Part shown: positions 34,715-59,271 of the stretch, piece after piece
How positions within the stretch are numbered: the first letter of the stretch is position 1
How the letters are laid out: every line of letters starts with the position of its first letter
Source of the DNA: a virus
Reading direction: 5' to 3' (one strand)
DNA: 64,000 bases
IMG/VR virus record: IMGVR_UViG_3300025597_000012
Translations under genes and position numbers: made by a program
Notes under the pieces: model-generated
Seen by the model: the letters and a program-made list of their open reading frames with translations, nothing else
The model's database searches: none
What the model was told of the DNA's origin: nothing

Positions 34715-36607
34715 TTAGAGAACTACAGGTTCTATATTGATATTAGCACTTGAGATGTATCCGTTAACTGCGGCCTCAAAGTTTTTACCTTGACCAGCAG
34801 GGAAGAATACATGAAGATGATAACTATCAGTATATTGCTCTGACCATCCACCTACTTTATAAGAGAAGTCAAATTCAAGCACATACTCATCGTAGTATTT
34901 GTTCGGGTCAGCTTGGAAGCTATATCCTTCAACTTCTCTGATTACAGGGTCAAAAGAACGCTCTTTTAAAGCATAGCTCTTAGACTCTTTTTCAAGTTTT
35001 CTCACATTAGCTCCAAATCCAGCAGGATGTTGGTAAGCTTGGAGTTTCTTAACAGCCCATGCATCTTCTGTAGGAGCTGCGTTGTAATCAGGATTAAAGT
35101 TAGATACCTGAATATGAATTGTTTCTGCTTCGTAAGGGAAGTAATCAAAAGTACATTCACCTGTTACACGATTTACAAAAGCAACTTCAAGTTTAATACC
35201 ACAAAGACAAGTACCTTCGTCTGCAAGTGTAGTATCTGCTTTCCATTCAACTCCTTCAAATGCTTGAGGAATAGTCCATACTAAATCATCCTTAGAACAT
35301 CCTGCTTTTACTGCATTAGAGTAAACGGTTGTGCTATATGTGTGAACACATGAACCACTAGCATTTACAACAGCTACTGTAAGGTTAGGATAAGCTGCTT
35401 GAATATCAGTAAGACGATTTGTTCCACAAACGCTATCAGCGATTGTAAGTTTAAAAGTTTTACCGTATTTAGTTACAGTACCTGCTCCAAGCCATGCTGT
35501 AGTTGTCGGAGAAGTAAGAACACAAGAGTTTCTAGCTTTACCAAGGAATACAACAGTGTCTGTACCAGAAGCGGTAAGAGCAGTTGTAGAAACTACAACA
35601 TAAGTGGAAGTACCAAACTCATAACTTACTCTTGAAGCAACTTCATCACCAGTAAGACTATAATCAGATTTGAATGTAGTTAATGCACCAGCACTACCAG
35701 CATCAAGTCTTGAAATTTTGTAAGCAAATCCACCAGTTACTAAACTGTAACCAGAAGGACAAGTATCACAATCAGGAACGATTGCAATAGCACTGTTTGA
35801 GAAAGAAGTAGGAGTAGAGTTTGTATCTTTAACTACTTGATATACAGATAGATTTCCTTCAATACCTACTCTTTTTACTACATCATTAGGATATTGTGCT
35901 TGAACAATTCCAAGAGCAATATCATCTTTGGTATCACAAATTCTAAGCTCAAATACATAGTCTGTATCAGTTGTTCCTGCTACGGGAGCAGTACATTGGC
36001 TGATAACACTAGCTTTGATAAGAGGTTGTTTACCATAAGGTTGAGTACCGATAAGCGGGTCAGAGTTGATTTGTTTTACCAAATCAGCAGCTATTAGGCG
36101 GCAATCAACACTAGCACAAGGGTCATCACAATCAGGTGATGTACTACGAACAACTGTAGAGAATTGACGAGTAATACCTTGTCTTGAGAAAAGTTTGTCA
36201 ATAGGGCCACCAGTTAACTTGATATACAAGTTTTTGATTTCACCCGGTTTAGCAAATAAAGTGTTTGTATCAGTTACATCACCAGTGTTACCTACAGCCC
36301 ATACTTCTGTTTGACCAGTTTTTGCTGCTTTACCTCTAAAGTTTTTAAGAAGTTTCCCTTTAATGAGTTTTGAATACTCATTTTCATTAGGAACTCCTGA
36401 CATTAAAGATTTGTTAGGAACATCGGGTGTACCCCATACTAACTGAAATGCTTTTGTTGTCGCATAAGTGGGAGAAGTCAATCCTTTGTGGGTCTTGGCA
36501 TCTACAAAGCCAACTTGACCTACAGCGATGCTCTCAACGGTTGCGCCTTGTGCGAGTAAGGCAGGGTTGTTTGTAACGAACACCTGTCTGAACGATTCGT
36601 GAGCCAT
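34715..36607 (-). CDS. Major structural protein, 630 aa (capsid or decoration candidate)
   Basis: S/T/G-rich; followed directly by an intrinsic terminator, as expected for a highly expressed virion gene. Confidence 0.55.
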   Translation of the reverse strand: MAHESFRQVFVTNNPALLAQGATVESIAVGQVGFVDAKTHKGLTSPTYATTKAFQLVWGTPDVPNKSLMSGVPNENEYSKLIKGKLLKNFRGKAAKTGQTEVWAVGNTGDVTDTNTLFAKPGEIKNLYIKLTGGPIDKLFSRQGITRQFSTVVRSTSPDCDDPCASVDCRLIAADLVKQINSDPLIGTQPYGKQPLIKASVISQCTAPVAGTTDTDYVFELRICDTKDDIALGIVQAQYPNDVVKRVGIEGNLSVYQVVKDTNSTPTSFSNSAIAIVPDCDTCPSGYSLVTGGFAYKISRLDAGSAGALTTFKSDYSLTGDEVASRVSYEFGTSTYVVVSTTALTASGTDTVVFLGKARNSCVLTSPTTTAWLGAGTVTKYGKTFKLTIADSVCGTNRLTDIQAAYPNLTVAVVNASGSCVHTYSTTVYSNAVKAGCSKDDLVWTIPQAFEGVEWKADTTLADEGTCLCGIKLEVAFVNRVTGECTFDYFPYEAETIHIQVSNFNPDYNAAPTEDAWAVKKLQAYQHPAGFGANVRKLEKESKSYALKERSFDPVIREVEGYSFQADPNKYYDEYVLEFDFSYKVGGWSEQYTDSYHLHVFFPAGQGKNFEAAVNGYISSANINIEPVVL

Positions 36608-36629: not shown

Positions 36630-37298
36630 TTATTCTTCTGTTAAAATTCTATCTTTTGAAATCTGAAATCCTTCAGCGTTCTCAGATATACCCTGAAATT
36701 CTAAAACACATCTGCTAATTATTTCATTAACAGCTATATCTGGTAAATCAGGATTTATATTCGTTGAATGACTACCATCTATTTTTATGTAGCCTTCAAT
36801 GTCTATACTAATTGGTTCTCTGTAATAAGTTAAATATGTTTCTTTAATTTTAAAGTCATTAAAATAGACTTTTAACTTATTATTTACTGCTGTACAAAGA
36901 CTTTCTTCATAATCAAAAGAGGGTTTAAAATTAGCATCTCTTAAAAGATTTCTGATATTTTTGTCTTTTGTAGGCCAGTTATCAAGTGTTCTAGTACAAT
37001 TACCTCTTGTAGCTATTGAAATACAACTTGATATATCAAAGAAGTCATCAGGGAGTGTGAAATCAAAATGGTCTAAATGCTTGCCCTGAGATTTTAACGA
37101 TAAGTCGTCAACAAGCAAATAGTTTAATTCGTCTAGCTCATTGGTTCCTAGTTTTCTTTTTAATTTCTGTTTAAGCCAGCGTTTAGCTTGCTCATTGTAA
37201 GAAATAACAAATTTACCTTTTGGAACATTTATATTAGAGTTAGAGTCGTTTCTATTCAGTTTAAGAAGAAAGCTGTTATATGCTTCCAGAGAGGTCAT
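36630..37298 (-). CDS. Hypothetical head-region protein
   Basis: ORF only. Confidence 0.5.
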   Translation of the reverse strand: MTSLEAYNSFLLKLNRNDSNSNINVPKGKFVISYNEQAKRWLKQKLKRKLGTNELDELNYLLVDDLSLKSQGKHLDHFDFTLPDDFFDISSCISIATRGNCTRTLDNWPTKDKNIRNLLRDANFKPSFDYEESLCTAVNNKLKVYFNDFKIKETYLTYYREPISIDIEGYIKIDGSHSTNINPDLPDIAVNEIISRCVLEFQGISENAEGFQISKDRILTEE

Positions 37299-41246: not shown

Positions 41247-43958
41247 TTACTTAGTTTTCTTCTTAATTTTATCAGCTTTTGCCTTCTGTTCAAGCTCTTT
41301 TCCTTTCATTATTTTAGCATAATCTAGTTTCTTTTCTTCTACTTGTAGACCAGCTTCTATCTTCTTTTTATCAAGTTCAAGCTTTTTCATTCTATAATCA
41401 TGTTCTGAAATTGCTTTATCTCTTTCTAAAGAAGTTTTTTCACGTTGAGCTTCAATCTTATCGGAAGCTTCTTGTTGTTTTTGACCAAGTTTATCATACT
41501 CTAGAATATCTGGAGTTTGGTCTGTATTCTGGTCTTTAAGATTATCTTGTTGTCTTCCAAAAGTAGTGATATAAGCCACTTCTTTTTTATTCTCAAGAGT
41601 CTTATCAAGGTCAGCACTTTCTTGTTGCATCTTAAGTTCTTCCAGTTGTTTTTGCTGGTCAATCTTTTGTTGCTCAAGTTGGAATTGTTGGTCAAGTCTT
41701 TGTTGCTGCTTGTCATAAGATTCTTTAAGTTTAATCTTAATTTGAGCAGGAGAATTAGATGTAATAATTTCAGCAAGGTCTACAACCGTTGCATTTGTAG
41801 TATTATTACTTAAAGCAAGTTGTTTTAAACTTTCAAGTTGTCTAATATCTTCTTGAGAATTAGATACATATACGTGGAGGTCTGATAGTAAAAGGTCAGT
41901 TCCAAGTATTTTTACAAAAGCTCTACTTAGGTCAGATTTAACATAAGTAACTGTAACATCTTGTTCTTTAGATTGTACATATTGAGCTATATCCAAGTTC
42001 ATTTTATTACATCTTTGGATATAGTTACTAAAGTTAGTAAAGTAGGATTCTGTTTGTGCAAATGAACGTGTTTGTCCTGCTTCTGCAGTACCAACAGGTG
42101 TTGAATTAGATTGCTGTCCTAAACGATACTGGTTAAAACCAACTTGTTTAAGAGCAAATTCTTCAAATGCTTCTGCTATTTTAAGTCTTGAAAGTATTCT
42201 TGCTGAAGCATCTAAGTCAATTTCTTTAGGATAATGACCACCAGCTATACCAGCAGCACCTTGTACGTTTGCAGGAGAAGTATCTACTACAGTTACTCCA
42301 AGCTCTTTAGCAATAAGCATAAATCTTTCATATGCTTTTGCTCCTCCCCAGTCTTTCTTATCAGGGAACATATTAACATCCATGATAAGGAATTTACCAT
42401 AATCTTTTTGCATTTCAGCATAAGCTTGGTTCATAGCTACGTTATGACCAATTTGGTGAGGCTTTATTAAATCTACAAGTGATTGAGACTGAGAATTTCT
42501 TATGCTAAATACTTGTCCACAAACCGGTAATTTTGAGCCGTATAAATTATTATCTGCTTTAAATTGAAAATCTGTAGGTTTAACATCTACATAAATATCA
42601 GAAGTAAAGCCGGCATGATTTTTAACACAAATTTTAGTTCCTTTCCATGTTCTATTTACCCAAGTCCATGTCACAGTATTTTCTTCATTAGATTCATCAA
42701 ATACAGAATCTATTTCTTTAAAATTAGCCGGAACTACAAAATCTTCATCTACATAGACTTTTCTTATTTGTCCAGTTTCAGGGTCTTTAAATATTAGTTT
42801 GCCAATTTTTTCTTGTGATTTCCAATAACCTTCAACAACAAAAAAATAACCTCTTCTTTCATTAAAATAACGACCACCATATAGACTAGTAAAGAAATTA
42901 CTATCTAAATAAGGTAAATTATTTTCTGGTTGAAGAAATCCTTGTGATTGTCTTACAATGTCATATGCTGGATACCCTTTAAAAGGCATCATATAATTTT
43001 CATAAACATATTCAGTACCAGCAGCATAATTCCAATGTTTATCTTTTGGTTTGGCTAGTTCTTGAAGATGTTCAATATCTTCTTTTTTCATCTTATAACC
43101 GTATCTATCAATAATATCAGATACTGTAAGATAAAATACACGACCCACATAATCTCCATCTTCAATATAGTTTACATCAGGAGATTTATGAAAAAATACA
43201 TTTATAGGGTTCCAAGTTTCTTGGTTATAACCATTAGGTGTTAAGTAAAAGTGTCTAAAGCATCTATCTGCAATTAGCATATCTTCAAATTCAACTTTCT
43301 CTTTTTCTAGAAATTTGAAGCGTTTACGGTCAAGCTCTAACTGATGTTGTCCCCATAGTTCTGCTGAAGAACTCCATGTTGTCTTCATGTATTCAGAAAT
43401 TTGTGGGGGAGTAAGCTGTTGCTTTAACTGTTCTACTTGCTTTTGATAAGCTTGCATTTCTTCATCAGAGTTGAAATCTTGTTTATTCTCATCAACTCCC
43501 ATCTCAAGTAATTTACGACTTACTTCGGCATTTATCTTAGCCATTACATATTTCTGTAATAGGTCAGTTTGAGTTCTTTGATACTCATTTCCAGTCTTTT
43601 CATCATGAGCTTTAACTCTAAAAAAATCTGGTCTTGTTTGCCATTCACCAGATAGTGTGTTTACTACCTTTGATGCAATATCATAATGTCTTAAGTATGA
43701 AGGAATTGCAAACTCTTTTGTAAGTTGACCAATCATATCAGAGTAGTCATCTTCTTCAAAATAGTGCTTATATATAAAACGTCCTTTTACAAGTTCGTAG
43801 TTTTCTACGAATCTCATATTTTGTATAAACTGGCTTCTGCCCACAGACTCCAGTGCATCCATACAGTTTTGCCACCACTCTTCATTCTTTTCACTTTTCT
43901 TTAACATCTGCGGGGGCAGCATTGCTAAGATGGACGATGTATAAAACGCGTTGTACAT
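41247..43958 (-). CDS. Portal protein candidate, 903 aa
   Basis: Directly downstream of the large terminase; charged Q/E/K-rich C-terminal tail. Confidence 0.55.
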   Translation of the reverse strand: MYNAFYTSSILAMLPPQMLKKSEKNEEWWQNCMDALESVGRSQFIQNMRFVENYELVKGRFIYKHYFEEDDYSDMIGQLTKEFAIPSYLRHYDIASKVVNTLSGEWQTRPDFFRVKAHDEKTGNEYQRTQTDLLQKYVMAKINAEVSRKLLEMGVDENKQDFNSDEEMQAYQKQVEQLKQQLTPPQISEYMKTTWSSSAELWGQHQLELDRKRFKFLEKEKVEFEDMLIADRCFRHFYLTPNGYNQETWNPINVFFHKSPDVNYIEDGDYVGRVFYLTVSDIIDRYGYKMKKEDIEHLQELAKPKDKHWNYAAGTEYVYENYMMPFKGYPAYDIVRQSQGFLQPENNLPYLDSNFFTSLYGGRYFNERRGYFFVVEGYWKSQEKIGKLIFKDPETGQIRKVYVDEDFVVPANFKEIDSVFDESNEENTVTWTWVNRTWKGTKICVKNHAGFTSDIYVDVKPTDFQFKADNNLYGSKLPVCGQVFSIRNSQSQSLVDLIKPHQIGHNVAMNQAYAEMQKDYGKFLIMDVNMFPDKKDWGGAKAYERFMLIAKELGVTVVDTSPANVQGAAGIAGGHYPKEIDLDASARILSRLKIAEAFEEFALKQVGFNQYRLGQQSNSTPVGTAEAGQTRSFAQTESYFTNFSNYIQRCNKMNLDIAQYVQSKEQDVTVTYVKSDLSRAFVKILGTDLLLSDLHVYVSNSQEDIRQLESLKQLALSNNTTNATVVDLAEIITSNSPAQIKIKLKESYDKQQQRLDQQFQLEQQKIDQQKQLEELKMQQESADLDKTLENKKEVAYITTFGRQQDNLKDQNTDQTPDILEYDKLGQKQQEASDKIEAQREKTSLERDKAISEHDYRMKKLELDKKKIEAGLQVEEKKLDYAKIMKGKELEQKAKADKIKKKTK

Positions 43959-46072: not shown

Positions 46073-46404
46073 GTGGTTTCTTCTAGTTTGGAACTCATCA
46101 TTCCATTTATATTAGACCCTTTTCTTACTTGGGCTTCTACTTCTGCTTTTGTTTCTCTTGCTTCTTCTACTGCTTTTAAAAGTGATGCAAATTCTTTAAG
46201 AGCTAAAATCCAACCTTTTAAAGCAGCTTCTTTAGTAGCAATAATTTTAACTACAGGCTGACCTTTAGAAGAAGTAACTGTTTCAATTCTATCATCTATA
46301 TCTTCAATAGGATTATTATCTATAAATGTTTTAAGGCTTGCAAGTTTACTTTCAAGCCAATCAATTTCAAATTGTGTATATAAATGGTCTTTCTGTTTAG
46401 TCAT
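46069..46404 (-). CDS. Small protein upstream of terL (possible terminase small subunit)
   Basis: Position only. Confidence 0.3.
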   Translation of the reverse strand: MTKQKDHLYTQFEIDWLESKLASLKTFIDNNPIEDIDDRIETVTSSKGQPVVKIIATKEAALKGWILALKEFASLLKAVEEARETKAEVEAQVRKGSNINGMMSSKLEETT

Positions 46405-46936
46405 TTTTTACTGGTTCAACTTCGTTAAATATTCTTACTGAAGGTATGAGACCAATATCAGTCATTGTAAACTTCTCAATTTCAATACCCCATTTTTTTA
46501 CTTCTACTCTTAATTTCTTAGCAATAATATTGTCAATCTCATTATCATTACATTCTTGCCAATCTCTTTGTATAATTTGCTCTTTAATAATGGCTTGTGT
46601 TGTATCTGAAAGAGCATCTTTACTATCTGATACTTTTAAAAGGAAAGGAGTTACATCAGCTATGTTATATTTGATTACTCCTTTAACAACTACTTGTTTT
46701 TTATCTTTAGTCGTTAAGGATTGTGATGGTGTAGATAATGTAGTTGTTACAACACTTTGTGTAAAGATTTCATCTAAAAAAGGTATTTTAAGATAAAATC
46801 CGGGAGATAATGTTTTAATATAAGTACCACCTCTTAGACGTATTCCAGCTTCCCACTGTTTTATCATCCAGAAAGGAATTACTTTATCTATTATACCAAT
46901 TATCCATTGTATAAGAGAATCAAGCATTTGATGCAT
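46397..46936 (-). CDS. SPFH/band-7 domain protein
   Basis: …QVVVKGVIKYNIADV…ALSDTTQAIIKEQIIQRDWQE…VKKWGIEIEKFTMTDIGLIP matches the stomatin/prohibitin fold pattern. Confidence 0.5.
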   Translation of the reverse strand: MHQMLDSLIQWIIGIIDKVIPFWMIKQWEAGIRLRGGTYIKTLSPGFYLKIPFLDEIFTQSVVTTTLSTPSQSLTTKDKKQVVVKGVIKYNIADVTPFLLKVSDSKDALSDTTQAIIKEQIIQRDWQECNDNEIDNIIAKKLRVEVKKWGIEIEKFTMTDIGLIPSVRIFNEVEPVKND

Positions 46937-48481: not shown

Positions 48482-48485
48482 TAAG

Positions 48486-48558
48486 TACACTCTAAAAGAT
48501 TCGAACTTTTATTTCTTGGTTCGTAGCCAAGTGTCCTCATCCATTGGACGAAGAGTGC
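48486..48558 (-). tRNA. tRNA-Arg (ACG)
   Basis: Manual cloverleaf: GCACTCT / GTCC..GGAC / CTTGG-CTACGAA-CCAAG / AAAAG-TTCGAAT-CTTTT. Confidence 0.8.
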
Positions 48559-48563
48559 AAAAG

Positions 48564-48635
48564 TGTGAATGACCAGACTCGAACTGGTACTTAGTAGCTC
48601 CACAAACTACCGCTCTACCATTAAGCTACATCCAC
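48564..48635 (-). tRNA. tRNA-His (GTG)
   Basis: Anticodon loop TTGTGGA; extra 5' G; T-arm ACCAG-TTCGAGT-CTGGT. Confidence 0.8.
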
Positions 48636-48643
48636 CATATGAG

Positions 48644-48714
48644 ATGCCTCTAAAGGACTCGAACCTGTAACTCTTGACCCAAAATCAAGCGTGTTGCCAT
48701 TACACTAAGAGGCA
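48644..48714 (-). tRNA. tRNA-Gln (TTG)
   Basis: Anticodon arm CTTGA-TTTTGGG-TCAAG; acceptor TGCCTCT/AGAGGCA. Confidence 0.8.
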
Positions 48715-48719
48715 AAAAG

Positions 48720-48791
48720 CGTGGAAGGTGGATTCCGAGACCACAACACCTTGCTCTTCAGGCAAGTGCTCTACCTTTGAGCTACATCCAC
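48720..48791 (-). tRNA. tRNA-Phe (GAA)
   Basis: Anticodon loop CTGAAGA; D-arm GCTC-AAAGGTA-GAGC. Confidence 0.75.
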
Positions 48792-48798
48792 ATAATTG

Positions 48799-48872
48799 AG
48801 CCTGAGAAGGGAATCGAACCCTCAACCGCTAGTTTACAAAACTAGTGCTCTACCGATTGAGCCACTGCAGGC
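48799..48872 (-). tRNA. tRNA-Thr (TGT)
   Basis: Anticodon arm CTAGT-TTTGTAA-ACTAG; acceptor stem has a bulge or mismatch. Confidence 0.65.
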
Positions 48873-48876
48873 ATAG

Positions 48877-48948
48877 TCTAGTTGACAGGGTTCGAACCTG
48901 CCTAGTCTTGCTCCCAAAGCAAGTGCCTAACCAATCGGCCACAACTAG
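48877..48948 (-). tRNA. tRNA-Pro (TGG)
   Basis: Anticodon arm CTTGC-TTTGGGA-GCAAG; acceptor CTAGTTG/CAACTAG. Confidence 0.8.
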
Positions 48949-48949
48949 A

Positions 48950-48978
48950 AATAAAAAACCCCGCTTTATAGGCGGGGC
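48950..48978 (-). terminator. Intrinsic terminator (CCCCGCC-UAUAAA-GCGGGG then U6AUUU) abutting the 5' end of tRNA-Pro; acts as the attenuator terminator of tRNA array A
   Basis: GC hairpin followed by a T-run on the minus strand. Confidence 0.7.
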
Positions 48979-49003
48979 TTTAAGTATAATAATTGAGTTT
49001 CAA

Positions 49004-49078
49004 TTAGTTACACGTAGTGCATCCGCCACCAGATATTGTGGGCGTAAACCAAAAGCGTGTATGTTGAAACTGTTTCAT
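49004..49078 (-). CDS. Leader peptide MKQFQHTRFWFTPTISGGGCTTCN (24 aa) of tRNA array A
   Basis: ATG about 57 nt downstream of the predicted TSS; stop 27 nt upstream of the terminator hairpin. Codons CAG TTT CAA CAT ACA CGC TTT TGG TTT ACG CCC ACA are read by exactly the seven downstream tRNAs (Gln, Phe, His, Thr, Arg, Trp, Pro). Confidence 0.6.
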   Translation of the reverse strand: MKQFQHTRFWFTPTISGGGCTTCN

Positions 49079-49141
49079 ATTTAAAAAAGACCAATTCTAA
49101 GCGCGCTGTTCTATAGGAAGCGGAACTGGTATATTGATGCA

Positions 49142-49172
49142 AACTTACGAAGAATTTTTCAATCCTCCAAAT
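49142..49172 (-). promoter_or_regulatory. Bacteroidota-type promoter (TTTG-N20-TAAGTTTG) for the array A leader
   Basis: Member of an extended consensus repeated six times in 48-58 kb (…AAATTTGG…AAATATTTTTCGTA(T/A)ATTTG). Confidence 0.55.
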
Positions 49173-49204: not shown

Positions 49205-49741
49205 TTAACTTCCTAACTCATTGTCTAACAGACGTAAAGCTATTTTATCTGTACCAAAGGCAGCTAATCTATCCATAAGATTTTGAGTCTTTTCATGCTC
49301 TTCTATTTGTTCTTGTAAATATTTCATACCTAAAGTATAGAGCATAAAATCTGCTTCTTTTAAAGCATTAGCTGTCAATTCTTTACATTGCTTAGTTATA
49401 TCAATTTCATGTTGATAAGACTGTTTAATTATATCCGGTAAACCTGCAAATGTTTGTTTAGGTGAGTCTAGTTTTGGAGTTTCAGGTTGAACACCCATAG
49501 CTAAGAGATACTCTCTAGACCATTCTGCGTGTTTTAGCTCTTCCTCTGAATATTTTCTCCAAAGCTTTGCTGAACCTAGATAACCATTATTATTTAACCA
49601 CAGACTCATGGCTAAATATAGACGAGAAGAAAGCTCCTCTTGTTGGATTCTATTATTTAAAAATTGAACACATTTATTAGATAATAGTTCATTTTTACCT
49701 GTAAGGGAAATAGAATCTGTAGTTTTAAAATTAAGTTCCAT
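49205..49741 (-). CDS. ftn: Ferritin (non-haem, ferroxidase-type)
   Basis: Spacing of conserved E/H residues and overall motif pattern align with bacterial FtnA (…EELSSRLYLAMSLW…EEELKHAEW…QHEIDIT…EQIEEHEK…). Confidence 0.75.
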   Translation of the reverse strand: MELNFKTTDSISLTGKNELLSNKCVQFLNNRIQQEELSSRLYLAMSLWLNNNGYLGSAKLWRKYSEEELKHAEWSREYLLAMGVQPETPKLDSPKQTFAGLPDIIKQSYQHEIDITKQCKELTANALKEADFMLYTLGMKYLQEQIEEHEKTQNLMDRLAAFGTDKIALRLLDNELGS

Positions 49742-49753
49742 TAAAAATTTTTC

Positions 49754-49785
49754 ACAAATATAACACTTTTTTGTGAAATTACCAA
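49754..49785 (-). promoter_or_regulatory. Promoter TTTG-N20-TATATTTG for ferritin (predicted TSS about 6 nt before the ATG)
   Basis: Same extended consensus as above. Confidence 0.55.
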
Positions 49786-49790
49786 ATTTG

Positions 49791-49875
49791 TGAGAGTGGC
49801 TGGAGTCGAACCAGCACCCTTGCGGGACTACAGTTTTACAGACTGCTCCACCTAACCGATAGGTAGCTCACTCTC
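49791..49875 (-). tRNA. tRNA-Tyr (GTA), type II
   Basis: Anticodon arm GCAGT-CTGTAAA-ACTGT; variable arm TCCC-GCAA-GGGT. Confidence 0.8.
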
Positions 49876-49881
49876 AAATAG

Positions 49882-49967
49882 CGGAAACGAAAGGACTCGA
49901 ACCTTCAACCCAAATTAACGAGTAACGGTTTAGCAAACCGCTGCAGTACCATTATGCTTACGCTTCC
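49882..49967 (-). tRNA. tRNA-Ser (GCT), type II
   Basis: Anticodon loop TTGCTAA; long variable arm; acceptor GGAAGCG/CGTTTCC. Confidence 0.7.
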
Positions 49968-49972
49968 AATAG

Positions 49973-50056
49973 CGGTAGAGACAGGAATCGAACCTGTACG
50001 GCTATTACACCTTCATGGTTTTCAAGACCAATAAGCCCTCTCATTTGCGCTCTACC
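49973..50056 (-). tRNA. tRNA-Ser (TGA), type II
   Basis: Anticodon loop CTTGAAA; 84 nt; acceptor GGTAGAG/CTCTACC. Confidence 0.7.
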
Positions 50057-50062
50057 AATATG

Positions 50063-50148
50063 TACTCCTGACTGGACTCGAACCAGCACGTCCATTTCTG
50101 GACAAGGGATTTTAAGTCCCTCGTGTCTACCAATTCCACCACAGGAGC
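50063..50148 (-). tRNA. tRNA-Leu (TAA), type II
   Basis: D-arm GTG-GAATTGGTAGA-CAC; anticodon arm AGGGA-CTTAAAA-TCCCT. Confidence 0.8.
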
Positions 50149-50153
50149 ATATG

Positions 50154-50237
50154 TAGCCTCGGAGAGACTCGAACTCTCACGTCCTTACGGACACTAGCTC
50201 CTAAGGCTAGCGCGTCTACCAATTCCGCCACAAGGCC
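50154..50237 (-). tRNA. tRNA-Leu (TAG), type II
   Basis: D-arm GCG-GAATTGGTAGA-CGC; anticodon arm CTAGC-CTTAGGA-GCTAG. Confidence 0.8.
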
Positions 50238-50424: not shown

Positions 50425-52368
50425 TTAATAAATATTTATTGCTAGTTTTTCTTTAAATAACTGCTTTTGGTAAAAGCGTTGTTTTAAAAATGAATATCTA
50501 TCGTAAGATTTGTTAATATCATATAATAAATTAGCTAATAAAGAGTTACCAACAGAAGCTATAAAAGTATTTATTTTTTGAAATAACGCTCTGAAATACA
50601 AGATATTAGTTTCTCTTGTAGGAAGGTGAATCTTTACTGATTTAGGTACTCTTACTGGCGGTGCTTCATTTACTGTTACCTGAACAGTATCTGTTCCTAC
50701 TGCACCATTGTTATCAGTAACTGTTAATGTAAATGTATATATTCCGGCTGCTAAACCGCTAACTATAGTAGTTGGTGAAGTAGGTGTTTCTATTAAATGT
50801 GCTGTAGGCCCACTTGTTTTTGTCCAATTATAAGAAGAAATAGTGCCATCTGTATCAGTCCCGCTACCATTTAAAGTTGCACTATTAGCAGGAAGAGTTA
50901 TAATTTTATCTTCTCCTGCATTTGCAACTGGGGCTATATTTTGTGCAGCAATTACAGTAATTATTACATTAGAACTGCCTGTTGCACCGTTATTATCAGT
51001 AACTGTAAGTCTAAAAGTATATATACCTGTAGATAAAGCACTTACAACCGTTGATGCGGAATTAGGTGATTGTATAGTAGCATTTGTAGGGCCACTAACT
51101 TGAGTCCAAGCATATGAAGAAATAGTCCCATCACTATCCGAACCGGTTCCGTTTAAAGTCACAGAACTTGCTGGTGCTTGTATAGATTGATTATTTCCTG
51201 CATTTGCAGTGGGTGGGGTATTTCCAACACAATTTGTTGTATATACTATTCCCGGTGTAACATCTATATCCGATGGAGAATTATCTGCTAATTTTGTATT
51301 TCCACAAATTATATTATCTGTGTTATATCTATTTGGATAATTTCCTCCATTATCATCAACACTAATATCAAAAGTTTGAAGAGAACCGCGAGAACCTGTT
51401 CTATTATTCTTGATAATAAATGTAGTATTCTCTACAGGAATTGTATTTCTTGGAGAAACAATAATAGCCCAAGGCCATACAAGACTATGGTCTAAACCAT
51501 CTCTTGTAGCTGAAGCAGGAAGAAATCCACTATGATTAATAGTATTATTTTCAATTCTTACATAAGTTCCTCCAAGTGAAGCAATACCCCAAACATAAGT
51601 ATAATCAATATTATTATCATGAATATACACTTTTGAATAAAGTCCTATATTAATACCGTTACCTTGACCATCACTAATTTCAAGACCTGCATTAGTAATT
51701 GTATTATTATAAATTTCACTTATACCAAGTTCAGCATCAGAAAGTTGAATAGCGGCACGACCTGTTTTATCAAATATGTTATGGTGAATTTTAAAATTAC
51801 CAAGGCGTGTCGGTTTATATTGTCCTTGAGTTGCAGGCACTCCATTACAAACAATAGGATTTCTATCTAACCAAAGAGCATTAGGGTCTGTAGAACCACA
51901 GTACATACCTTCGTATGTAATATTTCTTACTCTACAGTGATGAACTTCAATATTATTTATATACCAGTTAGGATATTGTAATGATGGGTCACAACTAGCT
52001 TCATTTTTAATCCAAAAACCAAAGGCTCCACCATCTATATCTATGTTAGAAACTTCTATATCAGAAACTCTTCCATGTAAAGAACATCCTGTTGAAACAA
52101 AACCATAGGTATCTGCTGAACCAGTTCCTAAAATTTTAATATGTGTACAATGTTCAATATCAAATGATACTTGAACTTGTCCGCCTTCATTTATAATGGT
52201 GATAGGCTGGTCAGCAGTACCATGTACTTCTGCCATATAAAAATAACTTCTAGGATTATCTGAAGCTCTAAGTACAATAGTATCTCCCGGATTAAAAATA
52301 CCCGGACTATTGATACCATTAAACATGTAACCGTTGTCTCCCTGTTTACCGGGATAATGTATTGCCAT
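50425..52368 (-). CDS. Tailspike/depolymerase candidate: right-handed beta-helix (NNTI/HDNNI repeats) with two C-terminal PKD/Ig-like repeats
   Basis: …IYNNTITNAGLEISDGQGNGINIG…IHDNNIDYT…IENNTINHSG… and duplicated …NAG(N/E)…TLNG(T/S)G(S/T)D(S/T)DGTISSY.WT.(V/T)SGP… segments. Confidence 0.7.
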   Translation of the reverse strand: MAIHYPGKQGDNGYMFNGINSPGIFNPGDTIVLRASDNPRSYFYMAEVHGTADQPITIINEGGQVQVSFDIEHCTHIKILGTGSADTYGFVSTGCSLHGRVSDIEVSNIDIDGGAFGFWIKNEASCDPSLQYPNWYINNIEVHHCRVRNITYEGMYCGSTDPNALWLDRNPIVCNGVPATQGQYKPTRLGNFKIHHNIFDKTGRAAIQLSDAELGISEIYNNTITNAGLEISDGQGNGINIGLYSKVYIHDNNIDYTYVWGIASLGGTYVRIENNTINHSGFLPASATRDGLDHSLVWPWAIIVSPRNTIPVENTTFIIKNNRTGSRGSLQTFDISVDDNGGNYPNRYNTDNIICGNTKLADNSPSDIDVTPGIVYTTNCVGNTPPTANAGNNQSIQAPASSVTLNGTGSDSDGTISSYAWTQVSGPTNATIQSPNSASTVVSALSTGIYTFRLTVTDNNGATGSSNVIITVIAAQNIAPVANAGEDKIITLPANSATLNGSGTDTDGTISSYNWTKTSGPTAHLIETPTSPTTIVSGLAAGIYTFTLTVTDNNGAVGTDTVQVTVNEAPPVRVPKSVKIHLPTRETNILYFRALFQKINTFIASVGNSLLANLLYDINKSYDRYSFLKQRFYQKQLFKEKLAINIY

Positions 52369-52378
52369 TTATTTTAAT

Positions 52379-52780
52379 TTAGGATATTACTTTAGTTGTT
52401 GAATCACTATAGGTTATAGTGACTATTTTTGTATCAAAATCTACTACTACATCATCTATTACTCTAGTAACAGTTACTTTTACACTATCTGAACTAGTTG
52501 CTCCTTTGTTATCAGTAGCAGTTAATTTAAACGTATAACTACCTAAAAGAAGTCCTGTAATTGTAGGAGTAAGGGTATTTTGTCCTGTAATTGTACAAGT
52601 ACCTCCGCTAGTTTTAGTCCAAACTACTGAAGAAATAGTACCATCAGGGTCTGTGGCAGTTCCAGTTAGAACTATTTGATTATTAGGAAGTTGTACTATT
52701 TTATCAACTCCTGCATTTACTATAGGTACTTTATTTATTGCCATATTTACAAATATACAAAAAAAAAACCATATTGCCAA
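52379..52780 (-). CDS. Ig-like/PKD-domain protein
   Basis: VNAGVDKIVQLPNN…GTATDPDGTISSVVWTKTSG… is paralogous to the tailspike C-terminal repeats. Confidence 0.5.
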   Translation of the reverse strand: MAIWFFFCIFVNMAINKVPIVNAGVDKIVQLPNNQIVLTGTATDPDGTISSVVWTKTSGGTCTITGQNTLTPTITGLLLGSYTFKLTATDNKGATSSDSVKVTVTRVIDDVVVDFDTKIVTITYSDSTTKVIS

Positions 52781-52784
52781 ATTT

Positions 52785-53243
52785 CTAGTTTCGGCAAATA
52801 TGGTCTGCTGCTTTTGAAGCTATCATCTCGTCTGGTTTTACTAAAACATTATATCCTAGTGATTTAACCCAACCGGTAATAGCTGGAACAAGATTTGTTG
52901 ATTTTGTTATTTTTGCATTATTATAATCGAACTCAAGGGCTTCAAATTGGACTGGAACTTCTGCATTTATAGTTTGAGCTGTATCTATTGTTATTTCAGC
53001 TTCCTTCCATAAACGGCTAAAAGTATCCCTTATCCTAGGGATTCTTTGCTTTCTATATACAAAGTGTGCTCCCCTAAGTCCATATCTGAACACAACCGCC
53101 GTAGCGTAAACTGTATTCGACCCGTAATTCTGTGAGTCAGTAGCTATGTAAATCTTTAGGTTTGGATTCTGCTGTATTTGTTCTACAACGTGTTCCACTA
53201 TGTTTACTAACTTTCCTTCCTCTGTCCGAAAGTATTTGTCCAT
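52785..53243 (-). CDS. Hypothetical protein (weak RNase H-like KIYIATDSQ…ATAVVF pattern)
   Basis: ORF; the motif match is only weakly suggestive. Confidence 0.45.
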   Translation of the reverse strand: MDKYFRTEEGKLVNIVEHVVEQIQQNPNLKIYIATDSQNYGSNTVYATAVVFRYGLRGAHFVYRKQRIPRIRDTFSRLWKEAEITIDTAQTINAEVPVQFEALEFDYNNAKITKSTNLVPAITGWVKSLGYNVLVKPDEMIASKAADHICRN

Positions 53244-53255
53244 TGGTTTTATTTG

Positions 53256-53331
53256 TGGAATCTATGGGCATCGAACCCATCTGGTATTCTGCTTGCAAGG
53301 CAGACGACCACTCCAAGCAGTCCCAGACCCC
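53256..53331 (-). tRNA. tRNA-Ala (TGC)
   Basis: Anticodon arm TCTGC-CTTGCAA-GCAGA; acceptor GGGGTCT/AGATTCC with G3:U70; unusual G8. Confidence 0.65.
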
Positions 53332-53335
53332 AAAT

Positions 53336-53456
53336 GCGGGGGACTACGGCCCCCTAAAGATGTCTTATTAGGTTTCATCTCTGTCCCGGATTACGCTAGC
53401 GAGCTACCGGGGAAACCACGCTACATACTTTCGTAGAGGTTATGCGGGTTACACTG
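53336..53456 (-). ncRNA. Unresolved ~120-nt structured spacer between tRNA-Ala and tRNA-Ile; hairpin-rich but no canonical cloverleaf found
   Basis: GGGGG-CCGTAGT-CCCCC and TAGCG…CGCTA stems. Confidence 0.2.
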
Positions 53457-53529
53457 TGCTCACGCTAAGACTCGAACTTAGACTCTCTCGCGTATCAGGC
53501 GAGAGCTTTAACCATTAAGCTACATGAGC
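53457..53529 (-). tRNA. tRNA-Ile (GAT)
   Basis: Anticodon arm CTCGC-CTGATAC-GCGAG; T-arm CTAAG-TTCGAGT-CTTAG. Confidence 0.8.
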
Positions 53530-53581
53530 TGGAGAGGGACAGGTTATTTATACCTTCAAAGGACTCCCTCAGACCTCTTCG

Positions 53582-53654
53582 TACTCTCAAAGGGATTCGA
53601 ACCCTAAATTGCCTGTGTATAAGACAGGAGTTTTCACCGTTAAACTATGAGAGC
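53582..53654 (-). tRNA. tRNA-Ile (TAT) (AUA-decoding, or a modified-Met type)
   Basis: Anticodon arm CCTGT-CTTATAC-ACAGG; acceptor GCTCTCA/TGAGAGT. Confidence 0.55.
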
Positions 53655-53659
53655 AAGTA

Positions 53660-53740
53660 AAGAGAGTGGGATTAGATTTCCGGGGATTGACCCAACCTGT
53701 GTCCTAATCTTATTTATCCTTGTACGGAGGCACACTCTCT
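53660..53740 (-). ncRNA. tRNA-like element (~80 nt) with 7-bp terminal pairing AGAGAGT/ACTCTCT but no canonical T-loop
   Basis: Pairing of the two ends is seen; no cloverleaf could be built. Confidence 0.25.
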
Positions 53741-53801
53741 TTGAATGGTCGGGCGGATTGCTTCTTTCAGCCTCAGACATTAATTACAATGTTGCCCGAT
53801 G

Positions 53802-53874
53802 CGGTCTATCACGGATTCGAACCGAGACTACCGCATAGACAGTGCGGCGTGTTCAACCATTACACTAATAGACC
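53802..53874 (-). tRNA. tRNA-Asp (GTC)
   Basis: Anticodon arm CCGCA-CTGTCTA-TGCGG; acceptor GGTCTAT/ATAGACC; overlaps the 3' end of the upstream ORF by ~15 nt. Confidence 0.8.
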
Positions 53875-54504
53875 ATAAACTTTATCCATGTTTGTTTTTC
53901 CGTTGCCATGAATAATCAACGGCTGAGTACCAGTTTTTTTATTAATCAGGATTCCATGTCTGTACTCAAAGTCATCTTCTGATTCAAAAGCTACAGATTG
54001 AAATAAATCACAGTTGGTATCCAACTTCATGTTATATTTATCTCTGTGCTTCAGATAAATTTCTGCTAAGTTAACTTGGTCATTATCACTATGTTTTATT
54101 GGATAATCCTCAAACATCTTGATAAATAAATCTACATTAACAAAGCATGCACCACCATTCAGATATTTCCAATCACTTTTTACTTTAGGATATTTTTCTG
54201 CCCAATCTGAATAAGGCCAGCATCCTTTTTCTGCGTTAAATATAATAGAATCAATATCATCTATTCTATCTATTGCTTGTTGCATTGTACCCAAAACTAT
54301 GATGTCATAAGTGTCTAGGATAAACAAGTGAGTACAATCTGTTTGCTTTGCATAGTTATAAGCGTTAACCATTTTACTACCATAAGCTTTATAGGTATCA
54401 GTCAGAATATCATAATTCCAATCAAACCTATCAAGTGAATCTTTAAACTGTTTAAACCCTTCGTGGTTTAAGTTGGTTGCTGTTCCTATTACGTTTACTT
54501 TCAT
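53860..54504 (-). CDS. Hypothetical protein, possible glycosyltransferase-like
   Basis: ORF; weak resemblance only. Confidence 0.35.
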   Translation of the reverse strand: MKVNVIGTATNLNHEGFKQFKDSLDRFDWNYDILTDTYKAYGSKMVNAYNYAKQTDCTHLFILDTYDIIVLGTMQQAIDRIDDIDSIIFNAEKGCWPYSDWAEKYPKVKSDWKYLNGGACFVNVDLFIKMFEDYPIKHSDNDQVNLAEIYLKHRDKYNMKLDTNCDLFQSVAFESEDDFEYRHGILINKKTGTQPLIIHGNGKTNMDKVYGLLV

Positions 54505-55289
54505 TTGAATGGATTATAATAAATAGATATTGTATTATTCTTATAACCCTGAACGGTTTCGTGATAGGTTTTCCATTGTTCAGAAGCATGGTTTTCTTTC
54601 CATTTCTGGTATGGTGTTCCTCCTGTATCTATGTGTTCTATCTCTATATGAGGTAAGAATACACTTTTAAACCCTGATAGTCTTGCTCTTATAGACATAA
54701 GGACATCATCAAATCCGTATAAACTAGGTTGGTATAAATAACCTATTTTATCAAGTAAAGCTGCTGAGTGCATAACACAAGTACCCATCACATGATTTAC
54801 TTGTTCTACTACTACCCATTTTTCACCGGGCTGGTGTTGAAGCATTAGTAATTCTGACTTATAAAAATCAGTTCTATTTGGTGATTCCCAACAATCTTTT
54901 CTTTTCAAGCCCACCTGTCCAATAGTATTGTCACGGCGAAAAACTTCTTCCATCTGTTCTATCCAACCTGATTGATGTATTACTACATCATCATCAATTT
55001 TAACACAATTCTCTCCGGGTTTTCTTTCTTTCCATGCTAAATTAATAGCTTCAGCAGTTCCTAGATTTTTATCATTCCAGATAACTTTATCAATTACAGA
55101 AAAAATTCCATTTGATTCAGAAAAATCTTCTATTATTTCTTTTGTTCTAGTAGTATAGGAATTTACAGAAAGTATTAATCTGTGTGAATCCCAGTCAACT
55201 GTTTTTTCTAAAGAATCTAATGTTTTATAAAGATATGTATCTTTATCATTATCTTCAGTACAATAAACAGCCATTGCTATTAAAGCCAT
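54501..55289 (-). CDS. Glycosyltransferase family 2-like; start moved to the internal Met at 55289 because the track start (55331) lies inside tRNA-Glu
   Basis: …NDKNLGTAEAINLAWKE…CVKIDDDVVI… (DxD) and YGFDDVLMSIRARLSGFK. Confidence 0.55.
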   Translation of the reverse strand: MALIAMAVYCTEDNDKDTYLYKTLDSLEKTVDWDSHRLILSVNSYTTRTKEIIEDFSESNGIFSVIDKVIWNDKNLGTAEAINLAWKERKPGENCVKIDDDVVIHQSGWIEQMEEVFRRDNTIGQVGLKRKDCWESPNRTDFYKSELLMLQHQPGEKWVVVEQVNHVMGTCVMHSAALLDKIGYLYQPSLYGFDDVLMSIRARLSGFKSVFLPHIEIEHIDTGGTPYQKWKENHASEQWKTYHETVQGYKNNTISIYYNPFK

Positions 55290-55304
55290 TGGTTTTATTT
55301 TTAG

Positions 55305-55379
55305 TATTCTGGAAGGGACTCGAACCCTCACTGACCACAGTGAAAGTGTGGTGACTTATTCCAATTTGTCAACCAGAAC
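55305..55379 (-). tRNA. tRNA-Glu (TTC)
   Basis: Anticodon arm CCACA-CTTTCAC-TGTGG; acceptor GTTCTGG/CCAGAAT. Confidence 0.75.
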
Positions 55380-55459: not shown

Positions 55460-55530
55460 GAGCGAGTAGTGGGAGTCAAACCCACGCCTTAACCTTGGAA
55501 GGGTCATATGCTATCGTAACACTTCACTCG
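55460..55530 (-). tRNA. tRNA-Gly (TCC)
   Basis: Anticodon arm TGACC-CTTCCAA-GGTTA; T-arm GTGGG-TTTGACT-CCCAC; the 5' end overlaps the HNH stop. Confidence 0.6.
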
Positions 55531-55942
55531 CTAATGCTTCTTTATAATGTAAATCTCTATGACAATTAGCACATAAAACTTTACATTTATTTATTTCTTC
55601 TTGTAATAGTTTTTTAGAACATTTTGTTACAAGTTGTGATACTTCTGAATCTTTTTCATTTGGATTTTTATGATGAAAATCTAAAACCCAATATCTACTA
55701 TCTCCACATGATTCACAAGATAAAGTACTTTTGTATTCAGAAAACCATTTTCTAAAGTCTTGTTTATACTTTACTGCTTTTTGAATATACTTTTCTTTAT
55801 TTTTTTCGTAATGCTTTTTTCTATATTCTTTTTGACAAGCTTTACAATTACTTTGATAAAGTAAATTTTTTCTATCTTTTCTTGTAGCAAACTCCGTTAA
55901 AGGAAGTTCTTTTTTACAAATTGTACATTTTTTAATTTTCAT
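55511..55942 (-). CDS. HNH homing endonuclease (leaderless; start at MKIKKCTICKK)
   Basis: CESCGDS…DFHHKNP…LCANCHRDLH; the predicted promoter places the TSS on the ATG, so the N-terminal extension in the ORF track is rejected. Confidence 0.7.
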   Translation of the reverse strand: MKIKKCTICKKELPLTEFATRKDRKNLLYQSNCKACQKEYRKKHYEKNKEKYIQKAVKYKQDFRKWFSEYKSTLSCESCGDSRYWVLDFHHKNPNEKDSEVSQLVTKCSKKLLQEEINKCKVLCANCHRDLHYKEALASEVLR

Positions 55943-58604: not shown

Positions 58605-59090
58605 TTAAATGTTAAGGAGTCTACAGATATAGCGGAAGGCAGATTTATCTTTACATTCTCCTTCAAAAAGTATTTTGTCACTATTATGTATTTTAAAAAT
58701 ACTTAGATATGTAGTGTCATCTTCATCTTCTTTTTGTCCATTGAAAAAATGAATAATTCTATTTTCTTTCTCCCAAAGGTATTCTCTCCAATGAATACAT
58801 CTCCATCCCTCAGCTATTATATCTTCCTTGGTAAGATAGGGTACTCTAATAAGTCCTCTTTCCAAATTGGAGGCTAAAGTTGGGCTTCCGTCTGATAAGA
58901 ATGTTTCTTTAACCCAGTTGTCCTCAAGTACCCAGTCTGCTACAGGTTGGGGATAATCCATTTTAATTAGCTGTTCCTTAGGTATATATCTAAGGAAATT
59001 TTGTTCATACTCGTACCCGTAAATAAAGTCTTCCAGTTTAGGAGTGAAATACTTACTGTCCATTGTCTTTGGTTTTATGTGAGCCGTCAC
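58605..59090 (-). CDS. Hypothetical protein
   Basis: ORF only. Confidence 0.45.
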   Translation of the reverse strand: MTAHIKPKTMDSKYFTPKLEDFIYGYEYEQNFLRYIPKEQLIKMDYPQPVADWVLEDNWVKETFLSDGSPTLASNLERGLIRVPYLTKEDIIAEGWRCIHWREYLWEKENRIIHFFNGQKEDEDDTTYLSIFKIHNSDKILFEGECKDKSAFRYICRLLNI

Positions 59091-59271
59091 AGAAGATACC
59101 GTCTTTACTTTTCCCGCAGCGGCACAGGGCTATTGTTCCGTTTTTTGAAGTATTGAAGATTCCTTGGATACCTTGATTAGGTTGTTTATCCTTAGGGTGA
59201 AGTTCAATTTCGTAGTCGGTGCATGCTATAAGAGCAGGGCCACCTTCGAGCAGTTTAATCTTTAATGCCAT
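59053..59271 (-). CDS. CDGSH iron-sulfur domain (mitoNEET-like) protein
   Basis: CRCGKSKDGIFCDGSH matches C-X-C-X2-S-X5-C-D-G-S-H. Confidence 0.65.
   Translation of the reverse strand: MALKIKLLEGGPALIACTDYEIELHPKDKQPNQGIQGIFNTSKNGTIALCRCGKSKDGIFCDGSHKTKDNGQ

Follow-up and report, generated by a model that had tools for sequence, protein, structure and literature searches.

A stretch of viral DNA of 64,000 nucleotides (nt) (IMG/VR record IMGVR_UViG_3300025597_000012, here called the window; 64 kb of a genome of ~118 kb) carries, in a crAss-like phage, a complete ferritin gene of the prokaryotic non-heme type. We establish here the identity of this ferritin, its intact metal ligands, its fold, the anatomy of the gene cassette in which it lies, its distribution among other phages and its synteny. 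On balance we favor the view that it is a catalytically competent ferritin of the 24-mer type which would oxidize and sequester Fe2+ in the infected cell. In most related phages the gene stands within the virion operon, where it alternates with a Dps-like member of the same superfamily and where both proteins begin with an N-terminal leader, and this raises a second and more tentative possibility, considered below, that the protein cage is associated with the particle.

The window encodes a ferritin with an intact di-iron site

The gene and the segment of it that distinguishes phage from cellular ferritins are as follows.

49205-49741, minus strand: ferritin gene, prokaryotic non-heme Ftn type (178 amino acids (aa), ATG start; Pfam, PDB, AlphaFold2 (AF2) model, Foldseek)
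49688-49741, minus strand: codons for a phage-specific N-terminal extension, residues 1-18, MELNFKTTDSISLTGKNE (predicted local distance difference test score (pLDDT) of the AF2 model; comparison with homologues)

Residues 27-159 of the open reading frame (ORF) match the Pfam family PF00210 (Ferritin) with 77 bits against a cut-off of 24.5 (E 1.8e-21), and a weaker match to the Rubrerythrin family is also present. Among the sequences of solved structures in the PDB, 73 distinct ferritins match the ORF, the best being that of Vibrio cholerae (3qz3, E 1.8e-23). An initial annotation, made from the nucleotide sequence alone, had called a full-length phage ferritin at this position, and the Pfam match together with the crAss-like phage families present in the window bears this out.

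Alignments of the protein to FtnA-type sequences run at a constant offset of +18. The di-iron ligands and associated tyrosine of FtnA we take to be E17, Y24, E50, H53, E94, Q127 and E130, and its site C to be E49, E126, E129 and E130. All of the aligned positions are present in the window ferritin, both at the di-iron site (E35, Y42, E68, H71, E112, Q145 and E148) and at site C (E67, E144, E147 and E148). The alignment of ferroxidase ligands which the initial annotation had proposed as a check was extended to 38 relatives with 57-79% identity to the window ferritin; no ligand is lost and all ten residues (E35, Y42, E67, E68, H71, E112, E144, Q145, E147 and E148) are invariant. Such invariance at this level of overall divergence indicates that the ferritin is under purifying selection.

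The AF2 model of the protein (pLDDT 89.8) contains five helices, at residues 22-51, 55-81, 101-128, 132-162 and 166-177, and so has the four-helix bundle followed by a short fifth helix. Foldseek superimposed it on 3qz3 and on Escherichia coli FtnA (1eum) with template modeling (TM) scores of 0.93-0.94 and a root-mean-square deviation of 1.2 Å over 159 residues. With these bacterial non-heme ferritins (1EUM and 3QZ3) the window protein shares the fold, the di-iron and site C ligands, the five-helix layout, the long B-C loop and the short E helix; it differs from them in being phage-encoded, in having just 28-33% sequence identity and in its extra, disordered N-terminal segment. The earlier description of the protein as 'FtnA-like' is therefore apt for fold and ligands (TM 0.93) but not for orthology, since the protein scores 75.5 bits against the NCBIfam FtnA equivalog model NF007638, for which the cut-off is 178. 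Taken together, profiles and alignments identify the ORF as a genuine ferritin that is not an FtnA equivalog. Two other members of the superfamily were considered and rejected: bacterioferritin, whose model TIGR00754 gives 14.8 bits against a cut-off of 125.55, and a mini-ferritin of the Dps or DUF5856 kind, since the ORF scores with the ferritin profile and not with the Dps-like profile.

Relatives of the ferritin lie in the virion operon of crAss-like phages

By its gene content the window is part of a crAss-like phage. It holds genes for a portal protein, TerL and a major capsid protein (MCP), all recognized with PHROGs, and the crAss-type families PF23898 (Crass_capsid, on the MCP, as recorded on identical genomes), PF25702 and PF24228 (ring proteins 1 and 2) and PF25731 (muzzle). 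A third ring paralogue, which matters for what follows, was recognized by its fold.

36630-37298, minus strand: tail-barrel ring protein p222, R3/R4/R5 type (AF2 pLDDT 86.9; Foldseek 7qoj_D/E/F)

The model of p222 matches chains D, E and F of 7qoj, the tail barrel of crAss001, with E values of 8e-11 to 3e-9 and TM scores of 0.70-0.75, and paralogous tail-barrel ring proteins are described in the crAss001 structure paper (PMC10172136). Searches of PDB sequences with p222 and with two other neighbors, p291 and p630, gave nothing significant, and p222 was recognized by the fold search alone. The identical ferritin is also found on contigs of up to 118 kb. Of the deposited phages, Leptolyngbya phage Lbo-JY46 is the closest; it has the same gene order and an MCP, portal and TerL that are 78%, 50% and 49% identical, respectively; a nucleotide search of phage records with the window returned tRNA-sized matches only, so these records hold no close genome at the DNA level.

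The ferritin itself has many relatives. In a protein database clustered at 90% identity we found 487, many of them on contigs of 100-131 kb, and the best 120 of the 487 are 59-100% identical to the window ferritin. At least 106 IMG/VR stretches (contigs) carry a relative, and we fetched 92 of these loci (L001-L012 and L031-L109). In 87 of the 92 a crAss-type TerL, portal, MCP, ring or muzzle gene lies on the same strand; in L009, L034, L082, L083 and L101 only the ferritin matched in the stretch examined. A tblastn search of phage records with the ferritin gave five weak matches of 26-29% identity, none of them in a crAss-like phage.

Four arrangements of the gene occur. The commonest is TerL-portal-...-MCP-...-p222-ferritin, and in the rarer ones the order is TerL-portal-ferritin, or the ferritin lies upstream of TerL (the type seen in the window), or it stands between the gene for the muzzle and that for a giant protein. 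In 59 non-redundant loci the ferritin ATG is placed -4 to +21 nt from the stop codon of the ring or portal gene, mostly at 2 nt, so that in those relatives the ferritin must be co-transcribed with virion genes; in most relatives it is probably translationally coupled to them as well.

This intimate placement is the first of several observations which would fit a ferritin, and an alternating Dps-like protein, that is associated with the virion or its DNA, the leader recruiting the cage to the procapsid, to the cargo zone or to packaged DNA much as an encapsulin recruits its cargo. We regard such an association as possible but entertain it only tentatively. The two loci in which the ferritin stands between the muzzle gene and a giant cargo-type gene (L010 and L011) also speak for it. 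The window copy, in contrast, lies outside the virion operon and has a promoter-like motif of its own, and the hints of virion association are weaker for this copy than for the family.

Within the main clade, MCPs are 70-90% identical and ferritins ~63%, whereas between clades the MCPs fall below 30% identity and the ferritins remain at 58-60%. Because ferritin identity is independent of MCP divergence and because the insertion sites differ, the gene has likely spread horizontally among crAss-like lineages, though saturation under strong constraint could also account for these values. As to its ultimate source, a scan of bacterial genomes with the single ferritin protein gave no match, and an alignment-based scan gave seven loci, mostly on contigs of metagenome-assembled genomes. 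Among the cellular homologues found, the nearest, with 50-53% identity, are ferritins encoded on the chromosomes of Flavobacteriaceae such as Maribacter and Sediminicola; that of Maribacter orientalis DSM 16471 (53%) stands among ordinary metabolic genes and has no N-terminal extension. These proteins share the helix-A motif RIEQEE.SSR with the phage ferritin and differ from it in being 169-172 aa long, with ~6 residues before helix A. A neighbor-joining tree puts the main phage group beside Flavobacteriaceae, but of 200 bootstraps only 13% recover phage monophyly and 6% the sister relation to Flavobacteriaceae. We therefore make no claim of monophyly and treat the relation to Flavobacteriaceae as a lead, drawn from best-hit identity and a point-estimate tree. 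One group of ferritins (L002-L008) has 100% bootstrap support and may represent a separate acquisition.

In a separate observation, entries of BFVD named 'prohead protease' and 'Dps' from uncultured Caudovirales (290-763 aa) matched the ferritin model weakly (E 0.015-0.13) over a ferritin-like domain, which suggests that other phages may have ferritin-like domains fused to head-maturation proteins.

A Dps-like protein alternates with the ferritin

An unbiased sample of the main clade was drawn via the MCP and not via the ferritin; at least 565 IMG/VR stretches match, and 80 loci were kept. Enough sequence downstream of the ring gene was available at 38 of these, and the slot directly after that gene held a ferritin in 8, a Dps-like protein in 26 and neither in 4. 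The Dps-like protein, of 137-171 aa, matches Pfam DUF5856 (45-67 bits against a cut-off of 34.6) and phrog_858, and when aligned to HP-NAP of the Dps family it keeps the H..H..D..E ferroxidase positions. Some genomes carry a ferritin and a Dps-like gene in tandem. The window, its near relatives L111-L113 and Lbo-JY46 all have an empty slot, and a search of them for a DUF5856 gene found none; in the window the next ORF (34715-36607) begins 22 nt beyond the ring gene.

Like the window ferritin, the phage Dps-like proteins (DUF5856 or phrog_858, including rI.-1 of the T4 group and g280 of phiR1-37) are members of the ferritin superfamily, and those of crAss-like phages have in common with the ferritin both their slot behind the ring gene and a leader of the same kind at the N terminus. 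The two differ in that DUF5856 proteins are mini-ferritins with an intersubunit H-H-D-E site and the ferritin has an intrasubunit E/E/H/E/Q/E site. Their occurrence in one and the same slot suggests functional convergence. Two further facts about the Dps-like proteins would suit an association with the virion: the phiR1-37 homologue g280 carries the annotation 'phage structural protein', and a Dps-like gene abuts the portal gene in the podophage DSL-LC05, which is unrelated to crAss-like phages.

Both proteins carry a phage-specific N-terminal leader

Residues 1-12 of the ferritin model have pLDDT values below 50, and no helix precedes residue 22. Ahead of helix A, cellular homologues have 0-6 residues, whereas in nearly all phage ferritins this segment is 13-48 residues long and is rich in K, T, P and S. 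The DUF5856 homologues from outside the crAss-like phages, which are ~118-120 aa long, likewise have no leader, since they align only from residues 26-34 of the crAss-like version onward. Of 67 phage ferritins, 64 have a leader with a net positive charge, on an acidic core. The first 15 residues contain a short motif, [LIM]LKR, in 16 of 68 phage ferritins and in 19 of 31 Dps-like proteins, but in just one of 2197 other ORFs of the same loci. The Leu and Arg codons of this motif vary synonymously, which suggests that the constraint on the leader acts at the level of the protein. Moreover, where ferritin and Dps-like genes stand in tandem, their products share lineage-specific leaders (MQKIVRPTVF with MQKIPRPSVL; MALDINKINF with MALDINKSLV). 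A permutation test of this sharing within genomes, on six pairs, gave p = 0.09, a value that is no more than suggestive.

Each of these properties (the shared motif, its synonymous codons, the lineage-specific pairing and the positive charge) speaks for a recruiting role of the leader. The capsid of crAss001, moreover, has a cargo space of ~5 MDa (PMC10172136). Other observations argue the opposite way. The window leader is the sole net-negative one of the 67 (net -1), is short, lacks LKR and has a loose resemblance to the MALDINK type. No third protein family with the leader was found, either in the window or among 72 exact DNA matches in IMG/VR, of which 53 are Dps-like, 2 are ferritins and the rest are due to chance or truncated; and the p value for sharing within genomes is weak. 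The excerpted virion mass spectrometry of crAss001 lists no ferritin-like protein, and a 12-nm cage with a mineral core would be too big for tail constrictions of less than 50 Å given in the same excerpts (PMC10172136). Finally, the leader could be the leftover of a gene replacement in place, or a DNA-binding arm in the style of Dps.

The likeness to encapsulins with ferritin-like cargo is one of resemblance only: in both, a gene for an HK97-fold shell lies beside a gene of the ferritin superfamily whose product has a short terminal peptide. In the phages that peptide, absent from free-living ferritin homologues, is conserved, and its binding to the shell is putative. In encapsulins the targeting peptide typically stands at the C terminus, and EncFtn or Flp, in place of a 24-mer Ftn, serves as cargo; the leader of the phage ferritins is N-terminal, and the crAss-like shell, unlike that of an encapsulin, is a DNA-filled virus capsid. 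In its most novel form, the proposal is that a large environmental clade of crAss-like phages recruits a 24-mer ferritin or a 12-mer Dps-like cage to the assembling particle or to packaged DNA by means of a lineage-specific leader, and that the window ferritin is a relocated copy. We think this unlikely; if true, it would describe a virus-borne counterpart of encapsulin and ferritin nanocompartments.

Predicted role of the ferritin in the infected cell

The reading that we favor, on balance, is that the ferritin acts as a working iron-oxidizing and iron-sequestering cage in the infected cell. Its cassette would be transcribed by the host RNA polymerase in the middle or late phase of infection, and the product would assemble as a 24-mer cage. 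The cage would oxidize Fe2+ at its di-iron center and store a ferric mineral, leaving less free iron and limiting Fenton chemistry and its damage during the replication and packaging of phage DNA, with a presumed antioxidant or iron-buffering benefit. Most related phages would meet the same need with a ferritin or a DUF5856 gene co-transcribed with virion genes.

A parallel exists in the 'Gratiaviridae', phages infecting Bacteroides which, in excerpts of the paper describing them, encode Dps and Mn-catalase, read by its authors as a means of tolerating oxidative stress in an anaerobe (PMC8008677). The likeness to the window ferritin lies in the ferritin superfamily, in phages of Bacteroidota and in the interpretation as protection from oxidative stress. 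The differences are that the 'Gratiaviridae' have Dps and catalase and not Ftn, that they form a different phage group, and that the same excerpts describe neither placement in a virion module nor a leader (PMC8008677).

Three considerations weigh against a purely cytoplasmic antioxidant role. The ferroxidase reaction needs O2 or H2O2, so any benefit would depend on the oxygen exposure of the habitat or host; and neither the embedding of the gene in the virion operon, at -4 to +21 nt from its neighbor, nor the conserved N-terminal leader would be necessary for it.

In the window the ferritin is a cassette in a tRNA hot spot

The surroundings of the window ferritin are unlike the virion operon of its relatives, and their elements are given here in order of position.

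48485-48948, minus strand: downstream tRNA array (Pro, Thr, Phe, Gln, His, Arg; ARAGORN, Rfam)
48955-48981, minus strand: intrinsic-terminator-like hairpin with T-run at the end of the ferritin cassette (10 pairs, 6 of them G-C, then TTATTT)
48982-49171, minus strand: non-coding unit from ferritin stop to terminator (second promoter-like motif at 49171-49140; fold z-score -3.1)
49755-49786, minus strand: Bacteroidota-type promoter-like motif TTTGGTAATTTCACAAAAAAGTGTTATATTTG upstream of ferritin (motif match; sigma-70 scan)
49790-50237, minus strand: upstream tRNA array (Leu, Leu, Ser, Tyr; ARAGORN, Rfam)

The ferritin thus lies between tRNA arrays, as initially annotated: six tRNA genes (48485-48948) follow it and four (49790-50237) precede it, and all of them share its strand. 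The motif TTTG-N20-TATATTTG, at 49786-49755, ends 13 nt before the ferritin ATG, and a sigma-70 scan flags the same site (TTGGTA-17-TATATT at 49785-49757). Motifs of the TTTG-N20 type are of the kind described for Bacteroidota promoters. The window contains 14 copies against 4.1 expected, a number that none of 100 shuffles reached, and 12 of the 14 lie on the coding strand, where most of them fall between genes in the segment from 48 to 60 kb. The claim that the ferritin has its own promoter is accordingly sustained as a prediction from motif match and sigma-70 scan, and goes no further than the motif match. Written in general form as TTTG-N17-23-TAnnTTTG, the motif is enriched in Lbo-JY46 (PP438436.1, 95000-125312) as well as in the window; Lbo-JY46 has 10 copies against 2.6 expected, often as TTTGGTAGTTT...TATCTTTG. 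The deposited host of that phage is the cyanobacterium Leptolyngbya boryana; either this host assignment deserves checking or these phages use the motif independently of a Bacteroidota host.

With a promoter motif upstream and a strong hairpin and T-run downstream, the ferritin unit looks self-contained. Beyond the ferritin stop there is a second promoter-like motif, TTTG-N20-TAAGTTTG (49171-49140), then ~160 nt without a convincing ORF and then the terminator ahead of tRNA-Pro. This unit (48982-49171) may be a candidate small RNA; Rfam matches across 48955-49171 are all below threshold (Trp_leader 33.9 against 41; GcvB 23.5 against 42). A comparable unit of promoter, leader and hairpin, at 50418-50244, precedes the tRNA-Leu array, and the interiors of the two promoter-to-terminator units (48955-49171 and 50418-50244) have no homology to each other.

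Comparison with Lbo-JY46 shows how the cassette is bounded. Nucleotide homology at 48576-48981 spans the downstream tRNA array and breaks exactly at the terminator hairpin; Lbo-JY46 has a 74-aa ORF at the place where the window carries both the ferritin and two additional tRNAs, and a tblastn search found no ferritin in it. Because the ferritin is missing from Lbo-JY46 and homology breaks at the hairpin, the window ferritin is best described as an accessory insertion in a variable tRNA region, that is, a cassette of predicted promoter, gene and predicted terminator in a tRNA hot spot, which in turn lies upstream of the genes for the terminase and the head.

A gene in such a place might be a neutral passenger with no role for the phage, and the hot spot in Lbo-JY46 does gather homing endonucleases and small ORFs as well. 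This is, in our judgment, very improbable, given ligands conserved across hundreds of phage copies, recurrent independent placements of the gene and a Dps-like protein that substitutes for it in the same slot.

The tRNA region as a whole is a collecting point for accessory genes. ARAGORN called 21 tRNA genes in the window, all on the coding strand. Rfam adds a tRNA at 55461-55531 (minus strand, 50.1 bits) that ARAGORN did not call and a sub-threshold tRNA-Sec-like match at 49974-50056 (minus strand), between tRNA-Ser and tRNA-Leu, so that the tRNA-like genes of the window may number 22-23 and not 21. Interleaved with the arrays at 50425-55331 (minus strand) are genes for a 647-aa protein of repeated PKD/Big domains, a 133-aa PKD-like protein, an RNaseH-like protein and two glycosyltransferases, with Pfam families as recorded for an identical genome. 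A homing endonuclease occupies the tRNA region in Lbo-JY46.

The CDGSH protein is a separate accessory gene

The initial annotation had connected the ferritin with a second iron protein of the window.

59053-59271, minus strand: CDGSH iron-sulfur domain protein, 72 aa (Pfam PF09360; CRCGKSKDGIFCDGSH aligned to 3tbn and 3tbm)

The presence of a CDGSH Fe-S domain was confirmed, with a match to PF09360 (zf-CDGSH) of 39 bits against a cut-off of 29.5; both genes therefore exceed their Pfam cut-offs (77 against 24.5 for the ferritin) in the profile search suggested as a check. The four ligands C50, C52, C61 and H65 are in place at the right spacing (C50-R-C52-G-K-S55-K-D-G-I-F-C61-D-G-S-H65), and the usual Pro of the motif is replaced by Ile. 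The description 'mitoNEET-type' is imprecise: the protein has the 3Cys-1His CDGSH motif, which it shares with mitoNEET and with bacterial CDGSH proteins (3TBN and 3TBM), but the best matches are to bacterial proteins with one or two CDGSH domains (3tbn and 3tbm), with mitoNEET at only E 0.004-0.01. As a subtype mitoNEET was rejected (CISD1 E 0.004-0.02; CISD2 E >0.1). From 3TBN, 3TBM and mitoNEET the window protein differs in being a single phage-encoded domain of 72 aa, in the Ile for Pro and in having almost no relatives. There are 13 detectable relatives, at no more than 45% identity over most of the length; one is on an IMG/VR contig that is not crAss-like and otherwise shares nothing with the window, and no relative was found on ferritin loci other than those of the same phage. 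With so few relatives and none near other ferritin loci, the CDGSH gene is, as far as these comparisons indicate, a rare and lineage-specific accessory gene, independent of the ferritin. No paper linking a phage with a CDGSH protein was found in the searchable library.

These results bear directly on the idea of the ferritin as a reservoir or thief of iron, which would supply iron enzymes of phage or host late in infection, the [2Fe-2S] CDGSH protein among them, or would starve the host's iron functions. Ferritins release iron as well as store it, the two genes share a strand in this phage and stand ~9.3 kb apart, and Bacteroidota-type promoter motifs are found near both. The proposed joint action of ferritin and CDGSH protein nevertheless finds no support in their conservation: the two are not co-conserved, the CDGSH protein having 13 relatives and the ferritin hundreds, and no other iron or Fe-S gene was found among the scanned proteins of the window (64 kb of ~118 kb). 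We consider an iron reservoir or thief quite unlikely.

A Ferrojan horse in the strict sense, in which iron carried on the particle in tail fibers exploits host iron-uptake receptors and the ferritin serves as iron donor, is scarcely credible here. The phage does handle iron and Bacteroidota hosts have many TonB-dependent receptors, which would suit it; nothing in the window points to iron in tail fibers. The hypothesis itself, as its abstract gives it, concerns metal sites of tail fibers and not ferritin (10.1101/674382).

Other features of the window

At 1979-13858 (minus strand) a single ORF of 3,959 aa has an ART-PolyVal ADP-ribosyltransferase domain at residues 1805-1954. It sits downstream of the muzzle gene, the position of the cargo and RNA-polymerase genes of crAss001, and is probably an ejected polyvalent protein. 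The portal ORF at 41247-43958 (minus strand) has 903 aa in the window, whereas gene calls on contigs with the identical ferritin (L013-L017) give it 871, 886 or 891 aa, differences that reflect start-codon or N-terminal variation among near-identical genomes. A Band_7 (SPFH) protein at 46397-46936 (minus strand), two genes upstream of the terminase, is also present in the closest relatives (L013-L017 and L111), where it is conserved. Between 60000 and 64000 the G+C content rises from ~0.33 to 0.44 and, past ~60 kb, ORFs change to the plus strand; the ORFs tested in this segment gave no Pfam matches. The position at ~60 kb is probably the boundary between late and early modules.

Discussion

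Phage ferritin-like genes are already known in outline, as scattered auxiliary genes: a myxophage ferritin is listed in a 2026 preprint, UniProt has entries named 'putative bacterial non-heme ferritin' from uncultured phages, and PHROGs includes an unannotated ferritin family. Within the searchable library, no paper was found that connects a phage ferritin with crAss-like phages or Crassvirales. What appears to be new is the size of the lineage, its fixed place in the virion operon, the alternation with DUF5856 and the shared leader.

In one abundant clade, roughly nine in ten loci keep a gene of the ferritin superfamily, with a leader, in the virion operon, and on this ground control of iron and oxidants would be a near-constant requirement of these crAss-like phages, many of which probably infect Bacteroidota. 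The question raised is whether the ferritin cage is a cytoplasmic antioxidant only or is also part of the particle. If it were borne by the particle, it would provide a functional link between phage capsids and the iron compartments of encapsulins, and would bear on the iron carried by viral particles in the environment.

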